Shown one piece after another: positions 1,917-2,455 of a stretch of DNA of 4,968 nucleotides; position 1 is the first letter of the stretch; every line of letters begins with the position of its first letter. The position numbers were made by a program, and so were the translations under genes. This DNA is from a virus (Duplodnaviria; Heunggongvirae; Uroviricota; Caudoviricetes), in the IMG/VR virus record IMGVR_UViG_2541047436_000009. One strand, given 5' to 3'. The notes under the pieces were generated by a model. That model worked only from the letters and a program-made list of their open reading frames with translations. It was not told the origin of the DNA and searched no databases.

Positions 1917-2069
1917 CTATTGTTGAACTGGATTAAACCAGTAATTCTCTATTGCTCTTATTGTTACCATCGGATGATTGCCGGGGGTTATTTTAAGTTC
2001 GGGAGGAAAAGGCTCTCCATCAGCAGCCATCATTGAGTATGTGAAATCCGCCGACGCAGTCCCTTTCAT
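1917..2069 (-). CDS. Either the C-terminal reading frame of a frameshift-split gene (with 2066..2455) or an independent 50-aa ORF whose ATG overlaps the upstream stop
   Basis: The -1 frame relative to the 129-aa ORF is open from about 2270 to the TAG at 1919..1917 and reads as protein-like sequence (...IAERELSSPAAIASFYEESYSDDTGLPELLSLLEKFGIIMKGTASADFTYSMMAADGEPFPPELKITPGNHPMVTIRAIENYWFNPVQQ). The ATG at 2069..2067 overlaps the TGA of the 129-aa ORF (ATGA) but has only a weak RBS. Confidence 0.35.
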   Translation of the reverse strand: MKGTASADFTYSMMAADGEPFPPELKITPGNHPMVTIRAIENYWFNPVQQ

Positions 2070-2455
2070 GATAATTCCGAATTTTTCAAGTAATGAGAGC
2101 AGTTCCGGTAATCCTGTGTCATCTGAATAACTTTCCTCATAGAAAGAAGCGATTGCCGCAGGAGATGACAGTTCTCGCTCTGCAATTTTTTTGTAGTTTT
2201 CCAGAATTCTTTTTTTGAATACTTTTCCTCGACATGAAAACCCATCACCGAGGCAATCCGCTTTGCAGTTTCTTCAGTATTCTGGTTGTTTGTTACCGAA
2301 ACAGAGTACAATCCGGTAAACGCATCGCGCACATTACGAGCCATATTATCAATGTATTTCTTCGTTGCAGATTCTAATTCAACTTCGTTCAGACGTTGGT
2401 GAAGTGCATGTGCTGCAATTTCCTGGATTTCTTTTAGTAAATCTTTAAATTCCAT
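2066..2455 (-). CDS. Hypothetical protein, 129 aa as read; the 3' third is probably out of frame (see the frameshift finding)
   Basis: ORF-track ORF with ATG at 2455 and GGAG 6 nt upstream. The N-terminal two thirds look protein-like (MEFKDLLKEIQEIAAHALHQRLNEVELESATKKYIDNMARNVRDAFTGLYSVSVTNNQNTEETAKRIASVMGFHVEEKYSKKEFWKTTKK). After two A7 tracts the frame becomes rich in rare codons (CGG, AGG, CTC, TCG) and less protein-like. Confidence 0.6.
   Translation of the reverse strand: MEFKDLLKEIQEIAAHALHQRLNEVELESATKKYIDNMARNVRDAFTGLYSVSVTNNQNTEETAKRIASVMGFHVEEKYSKKEFWKTTKKLQSENCHLLRQSLLSMRKVIQMTQDYRNCSHYLKNSELS

Follow-up and report, generated by a model that had tools for sequence, protein, structure and literature searches.

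The dicBF operon of the Qin prophage of Escherichia coli K-12 has the gene order ydfA-ydfB-ydfC-dicF-dicB-ydfD (PMC5069750). As for slippery sequences, -1 frameshifting at the A_AAA_AAA heptamer in E. coli has been measured at 0.405% when unstimulated; moderate stimulators bring it to 0.82%, and a strong pseudoknot to 24.8% (PMC4066793, Table S3). Slippage during transcription usually becomes noticeable once a run reaches about 9 residues (PMC1088944). We report here on a prophage operon of the dicBF type in which the gene standing in the ydfC slot is split between two reading frames, close to two such heptamers. The data point strongly to an ordinary mutation, a homopolymer frameshift that has become fixed in an accessory gene of the prophage, and not to a programmed recoding signal.

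The window, i.e., the whole stretch of 4,968 nucleotides that was analyzed, corresponds to the early region of a Qin/Rac-type lambdoid prophage (Table 1). DicF and dicB were found downstream of the split gene and ydfA/ydfB upstream of it, all on one strand, which is the layout of a dicBF operon. About 560 nt separate the split gene from DicF, and an exonuclease gene follows the DUF1482 gene. To the right of the repressor gene lie YdaS/Cro-like and YdaT genes, and a replisome organiser. Five TAGGC-N4/5-GCCTA palindromes flank the RacR-like repressor gene, two of them at 2935-2975 (2935-2949 and 2960-2975), where they overlap the leftward promoter, and three at 3571-3638, before the YdaS/Cro-like gene. 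These palindromes look like OL/OR operators. Since the promoter is overlapped by such repressor-operator-like repeats, the operon is probably silent in the lysogen, and the loss of a gene in a silent operon would thus be easy to tolerate.

Table 1. Features of the split gene and of its operon (window coordinates; all on the minus strand).
Feature	Position	Strand	Basis and remarks
Leftward sigma-70-like promoter, TTGACA-17-TATAGT (predicted)	2931..2959	-	Promoter scan, 11/12 matches
RacR-type repressor	3544..3068	-	Family match
ydfA-like DUF1391 gene, first in operon	2597..2752	-	Pfam DUF1391, E 3.9e-29; PGAP in the 99%-identical L001
ydfB, directly upstream of the split gene	2467..2595	-	PGAP "protein YdfB" at the corresponding L001 position
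Truncated 129-aa ORF	2066..2455	-	ORF list, translation; residues 1-90, native N-terminal helical module; residues 91-129, out-of-frame tail to TGA
First A7 run	2210..2216	-	Conserved in-frame S-K-K, not the break point; alignment without indel here
Second A7 run, site of the 1-nt deletion	2186..2192	-	DNA alignment, tract inventory; A8 in the closest intact alleles
-1-frame remnant, ancestral C-terminal 89 residues I91-Q179 and TAG	1917..2186	-	Translation; full-length alignment to the C-termini of P0001-P0009
50-aa ORF, possible re-initiation product	1917..2069	-	ORF list; ATG overlaps the upstream TGA (ATGA); without PGAP annotation
DicF small RNA, downstream, same transcription unit	1305..1356	-	Rfam RF00039, 76.9 bits (gathering 48), full length
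dicB cell-division inhibitor gene	931..1119	-	Pfam DicB, E 7.5e-39; NCBIfam NF049927, E 2e-36
DUF1482 (ydfD-like) gene	934..743	-	DUF1482 family match; after dicB

Positions 1..2926 of the window are 99% identical to a prophage of the O157:H7 strain PV15-279 (L001), whereas the immunity/replication module at 2927-4968 differs from that prophage, with RacR/YdaS/YdaT here and an HTH protein plus RelBE there. The window is thus a mosaic. As a whole, it was found in no complete E. coli genome of the collection, the best match reaching 85% coverage at 90% identity. Two other features of the window were observed. A small convergent ORF of 61 aa (1694-1879, plus strand), located between the split gene and dicF, carries a CPAC...CPEH zinc-ribbon-like motif; it is annotated by PGAP as the hypothetical protein WP_001133046.1 and had no family match. 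Also, GTCACG repeats with a 10-nt spacing form two clusters (4597-4660 and 4871-4931) inside the replisome-organiser gene. These iteron-like clusters probably mark the replication origin of the prophage.

Three-frame translation of positions 1880..2480 placed the first ORF of the split gene at 2455..2066 (129 codons), from an ATG at 2455 to a TGA at 2068..2066; its product is the hypothetical protein WP_000394511.1 of PGAP. On the coding strand, two A7 runs stand 24 nt apart, one at 2216..2210 and the other at 2192..2186. Each is phased as A_AAA_AAA: TC[A AAA AAA]GAA (S80-K81-K82) for the first and AC[A AAA AAA]TTG (T88-K89-K90) for the second. The -1 frame, already open ahead of the first run, stays so as far as the TAG at 1919..1917, i.e., over 89 codons past the second run, a length reached in 0.4% of composition shuffles. 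The original prediction, based on the same ORF, runs and open frame, was therefore accurate in its description. A7 runs are not over-represented in the window (3 seen, 3.0 expected). It had also been proposed that the 0 frame turns rich in rare codons after the runs. This is only weakly borne out: over the same span, there are 4/40 rare codons in the 0-frame tail vs 1/40 in the -1 frame, but the whole -1 part has 7/89. Codon usage did not separate the two frames.

A slip or a repair at the second run leads, by conceptual translation, to a product of 179 aa reading ...KEFWKTTKKIAEREL... When this fusion was used as a query, nine uninterrupted proteins of 177-186 aa (P0001-P0009) were retrieved, which cover 98-100% of it. 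The closest are P0001 (179 aa, 94% identity, E 1.7e-103), P0002 (179 aa, 84%) and P0003 (180 aa, 80%), followed by P0004-P0009 (177-186 aa) with 63-70% identity to the fusion. In Qin/Rac-like lambdoid prophages, the genes of the homologues are located at the matching place of the operon, flanked by DUF1391/ydfB on one side and by dicB on the other. For example, PGAP calls one CDS of 561 nt at this position in ETEC4070 and in LR882057. The alignment of the 129-aa ORF with the intact homologues parts after K90. With homology of this strength to uninterrupted proteins (E 1e-103), the split of one gene is unambiguous. The single-gene fusion of about 179 aa proposed from the letters alone, with its junction KEFWKTTKK/IAEREL, is thereby borne out, as orthologues of the fusion do exist as single ORFs. 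Conversely, the suggestion of two separate genes, made from the ATG at 2069, is contradicted for the ancestral state, because this ATG encodes an internal methionine which is conserved within the GIIM(K/T)G motif of all the full-length homologues.

DNA alignment with the intact alleles revealed a sole frame-breaking difference, which is one base missing in the second run. Three diverged intact alleles (L004-L006; L007/L008/L026; L009) read (A/G)C-AAAAAAAA-TTGCAG at this place, that is A8, vs AC-AAAAAAA-TTGCAG, that is A7, in the window. In the 186-aa type, the second heptamer is absent and the in-frame sequence is AAACGCATC; the distant 186-aa type reads AAA ATG GCC AAA CGC ATC GCA GAG, a non-homopolymeric sequence that aligns codon by codon with the A8 version. 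Together, the A8 of three diverged intact alleles and the codon-colinear 186-aa type indicate that the intact A8 ORF is ancestral and that the window carries a 1-nt deletion. Repair of the second run to A8 yields ...EFWKTTKKIAEREL, in agreement with the EFWKT(T/A)KKIAEREL of the homologues. The intact homologues read through the first run without a change of frame; most of them have A7 there, and L009 has GA6, with a synonymous G. As judged from these alignments, the lesion is the loss of one A from A8 at the second run only, the first run being an intact in-frame Lys-Lys. Either heptamer had been put forward as the break; the second one stands and the first one does not. The possibility of a homopolymer frameshift mutation, one of several raised in the original prediction, is the one supported by the data, given the A8 of the intact relatives.

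The stranded C-terminal frame contains neither a stop nor a further indel. A single derived change was seen in it, the replacement by M of an almost invariant Arg (HPRV to HPMV), and the sampled A7 alleles differ by four SNPs in all. In L011 (O157:H7 strain 4276), an A-to-T change at the equivalent of window position 2134 adds a stop in the out-of-frame tail of the 129-aa ORF, and this copy is flagged by PGAP as a pseudogene ("internal stop").

In our explanation, the ancestral gene encoded a two-module protein of 179 aa in the ydfC slot of a Qin/Rac-like lambdoid prophage, within the order promoter, ydfA, ydfB, split gene, dicF, dicB. One A was lost from A8, likely by replication slippage, to give the A7 now found at 2192..2186, and the gene was thus inactivated or truncated. 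The derived allele encodes residues 1-90, the N-terminal helical module in its entirety, then 39 missense residues and a stop, with the C-terminal module stranded in the -1 frame. The mutation is fixed in a lineage of prophages often found in Shiga-toxin-producing E. coli (STEC), in an operon presumably kept silent in the lysogen by the adjacent RacR-like repressor. A sub-percent leak of full-length protein may be expected, since published unstimulated -1 slippage at A_AAA_AAA is about 0.4% and both heptamers are in phase; stuttering of the RNA polymerase may also contribute. Of the two runs, only the second would bring back the native EFWK motif if a slip occurred there.

Concerning the possible function of the protein, searches in Pfam, NCBIfam, PADLOC and PDB sequences gave no significant match for the split-gene protein, and the PHROG matches were only to families of unknown function. 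The phage collection gave no nucleotide match and, at the protein level, only N-terminal matches at 34% identity to hypothetical proteins of Stx phages. The AlphaFold2 model reached a mean pLDDT of 55.7 (72-83 for the N-terminal helices alone), a quality too poor for a fold search. Membership in the YdfC family (K-12 b1573, 72 aa) was rejected, the BLASTP alignment having an E value of 0.055 over 33 residues. The N-terminal helical module, residues 1-90, is also present in 212-aa "Ybl81"-type proteins with unrelated C-termini, and it stands alone in shorter proteins. Since this module is fused to other partners elsewhere or occurs by itself, the truncated product may retain activity. If expressed, the A7 product would consist of residues 1-90 and of the 39-residue missense tail, and the activity of the module may be kept. 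The C-terminal module would be lost, except for a possible leak or for a peptide of 50 aa made by re-initiation.

Such a peptide leads to another reading of the locus, according to which the frameshift has left a pair of genes coupled in translation, one for the N-terminal module with its altered tail and the other for a 50-aa peptide re-initiated at the ATGA, this layout being kept as useful, for example to hold ribosomes on the mRNA ahead of dicF. The ATG of the 50-aa ORF does lie on the 0-frame TGA (ATGA, 2069..2066), so that the last 50 aa may be made by re-initiation at this overlap, and the N-terminal module of about 85 aa naturally occurs with other C-termini (the 212-aa "Ybl81" and the 129-139-aa forms) and may act alone. 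However, intact alleles already have both this ATG and the TGA, which is out of frame in them, and the overlap is therefore incidental. Moreover, the protein database search with the fusion found no separately conserved 50-aa protein, the 50-aa ORF is not called by PGAP, and its peptide would be devoid of residues 91-129 of the C-terminal module. As a joint reading, coupled genes maintained for their usefulness thus appear very unlikely.

It could also be imagined that the split gene is retained as a "leaky" recoded gene. The heptamers, with or without stuttering of the RNA polymerase, would give about 1% of full-length protein beside an abundant N-terminal module, and the premature stop would in addition tune DicF/DicB. 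Within the same reading, it may be speculated that a premature stop located 150 nt upstream of the normal one changes the ribosome cover, and hence the Rho-dependent polarity on the toxic DicF/DicB. A leak or a polarity effect could be a reason for the predominance of the allele in STEC prophages. We consider that there is little chance for this whole scenario to be correct.

Programmed -1 frameshifting was the headline option of the original prediction. The tandem A_AAA_AAA would then be a recoding signal of the dnaX/IS3 kind, setting a fixed ratio between isoforms of 129 and 179 aa. Both heptamers are indeed phased as -1 slippage requires, and the -1 frame, which stays open from one to the other and past them, encodes the conserved C-terminal module. 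In addition, the first heptamer, and only the first, is preceded at 10 nt by a GAGG, a dnaX-like spacing. In favor of this option also, A_AAA_AAA by itself yields the 0.405% measured in E. coli, a value raised to 24.8% by a strong pseudoknot (PMC4066793). Against this, the homologues are single ORFs and do not share the two-frame layout; in place of the second heptamer, the closest relatives have an in-frame A8 and the 186-aa type has no such run, and the first heptamer is interrupted in L009. The GAGG is part of the conserved codons V-E-E, i.e., of the coding sequence. No stimulatory RNA structure, hairpin or pseudoknot, was detected 3' of either heptamer beyond chance (z -0.04 to -0.98 vs shuffles). 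Also, the split gene is absent from the conserved-motif candidates of Sharma et al., in their systematic survey of E. coli, which is also the source of the frameshifting values given above. As for transcriptional slippage, as in tssM1, mxiE, Thermus dnaX and IS elements, a conserved run of about 9 or more A/T (8 in some taxa) is the usual yardstick, and here the run is of 7 and is not conserved. Programmed frameshifting is thus unsupported and, to our mind, very improbable. The slippery phase, the open -1 frame, the GAGG, the intact stranded frame and the high frequency of the allele each also fit a mutation of recent origin that hitch-hikes in clonal STEC lineages for which sampling has been heavy.

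This frequency was evaluated in complete genomes. The exact 601-nt stretch is present in several hundred complete E. coli genomes (O157:H7, O103:H2, O121:H19 and others). A 110-nt probe across both runs, repaired to A8, was searched in 5426 complete genomes and matched 386 of them. In 384 of the 386, a 1-base gap was the sole difference from the probe, as the A7 allele would give. A8 at the second run was seen in none of the 386, as no match to the 110-nt A8 probe reached 100%. Probes repaired to A8 or shortened to A6 likewise had no perfect match in complete E. coli genomes. In IMG/VR, eight contigs are 100% identical to the window, all with A7, and one metagenome contig, 99.8% identical with one SNP, also has A7; the sampled variants at 99.8% identity are SNPs and not indels. 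With A7 in 384/386 genomes and in these nine contigs, the allele is real, fixed and stable. As a side observation, the split-gene segment was matched in one case out of the 386 by a plasmid record and not by a chromosome.

The same counts bear on a phase-variable (contingency) switch, in which the A run would often expand or contract and switch the full-length protein between on and off. Indels are frequent in homopolymer runs, and other lengths are scattered among the relatives. The second run is A6 in L014 (protein P0011, positions 1734-1780), and the first run is A6 in L015 and L024. The A6 of L015 (277-323; protein P0017) is an independent change from A7 in an allele of the 186-aa type, and it fits runs that are ordinary indel hot spots. 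L024 (A6 at the first run and A7) is at a contig end of an IMG draft genome, in which there is also an intact copy (L023). The A6 allele of L014 was rejected as tract variation, being probably an artefact of an error-prone assembly with five A-run indels in 3.3 kb. Against a switch also, 384 of the 386 genomes are one base from the A8 probe and none has A8. A contingency locus would be expected to have a longer run than 7. Phase variation, although it had been listed among the initial options, is contradicted by this invariance and is extremely improbable. The last of these options, a sequencing or assembly error, can practically be dismissed: homopolymer miscalls are common in long-read and 454 assemblies, of which L014 is an example, but the same A7 recurs in hundreds of independently sequenced complete genomes, among them NC_013353, which we take to be a Sanger-sequenced genome, and in the IMG/VR and metagenome contigs.

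A lineage-fixed frameshift in the second run, which we regard as by far the best explanation, has consequences for annotation. The protein WP_000394511.1, carried by hundreds of STEC genomes, is the frameshifted remnant of a 179-aa prophage protein and is to be annotated accordingly. More generally, when the single ORF of close relatives has a run one base longer, a slippery heptamer in phase with an open -1 frame behind it does not count as evidence of programmed recoding. If the idea of a leaky repair or of a polarity effect were true, a silent-looking lesion would be tied to the control of the DicF/DicB division inhibitors in EHEC; this link is speculative, and nothing found here argues for it.

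Compared with the dicBF operon of K-12 Qin (PMC5069750), the locus shows the same gene order and flanks, with DicF and DicB present and the split gene in the ydfC slot. However, the protein of the split gene is not homologous to YdfC, and the immunity region is of the RacR/YdaS/YdaT type vs DicA/DicC in K-12. With the programmed -1 sites of dnaX and of the IS3 family, the locus shares an in-phase A_AAA_AAN heptamer and a Shine-Dalgarno-like GAGG located 10 nt upstream of one heptamer. Unlike these sites, it shows no stimulator downstream beyond chance and its two-frame layout is not shared by the homologues; a deletion in a Lys-Lys run gave rise to the heptamer or coincides with it. The locus also resembles tssM1 of Citrobacter rodentium, with its A11 (PMC4256274), and the genes with 9A runs of E. 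coli and Shigella (PMC1088944), in that the frame is broken at a poly-A run and that the ancestral protein would be recovered if the mRNA gained one A or the ribosome slipped by -1. These proven cases have 9-11 A and measured, functionally required product ratios, in contrast with the 7 A of the present run, a length under the 9 or so from which transcriptional slippage usually shows.

The frameshift pseudogenes and truncations formed by slipped-strand indels at homopolymer runs in cryptic prophages offer the remaining comparison. They share with our locus a 1-nt deletion in a mononucleotide run as compared with intact orthologues, a stranded downstream frame, a lineage-fixed allele and an accessory gene under repressor control. 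Two differences can be noted. In the present case, the mutation is recent, and the stranded part is therefore almost without decay. Also, the run is here an in-phase slippery heptamer, which makes a leaky repair mechanistically possible.
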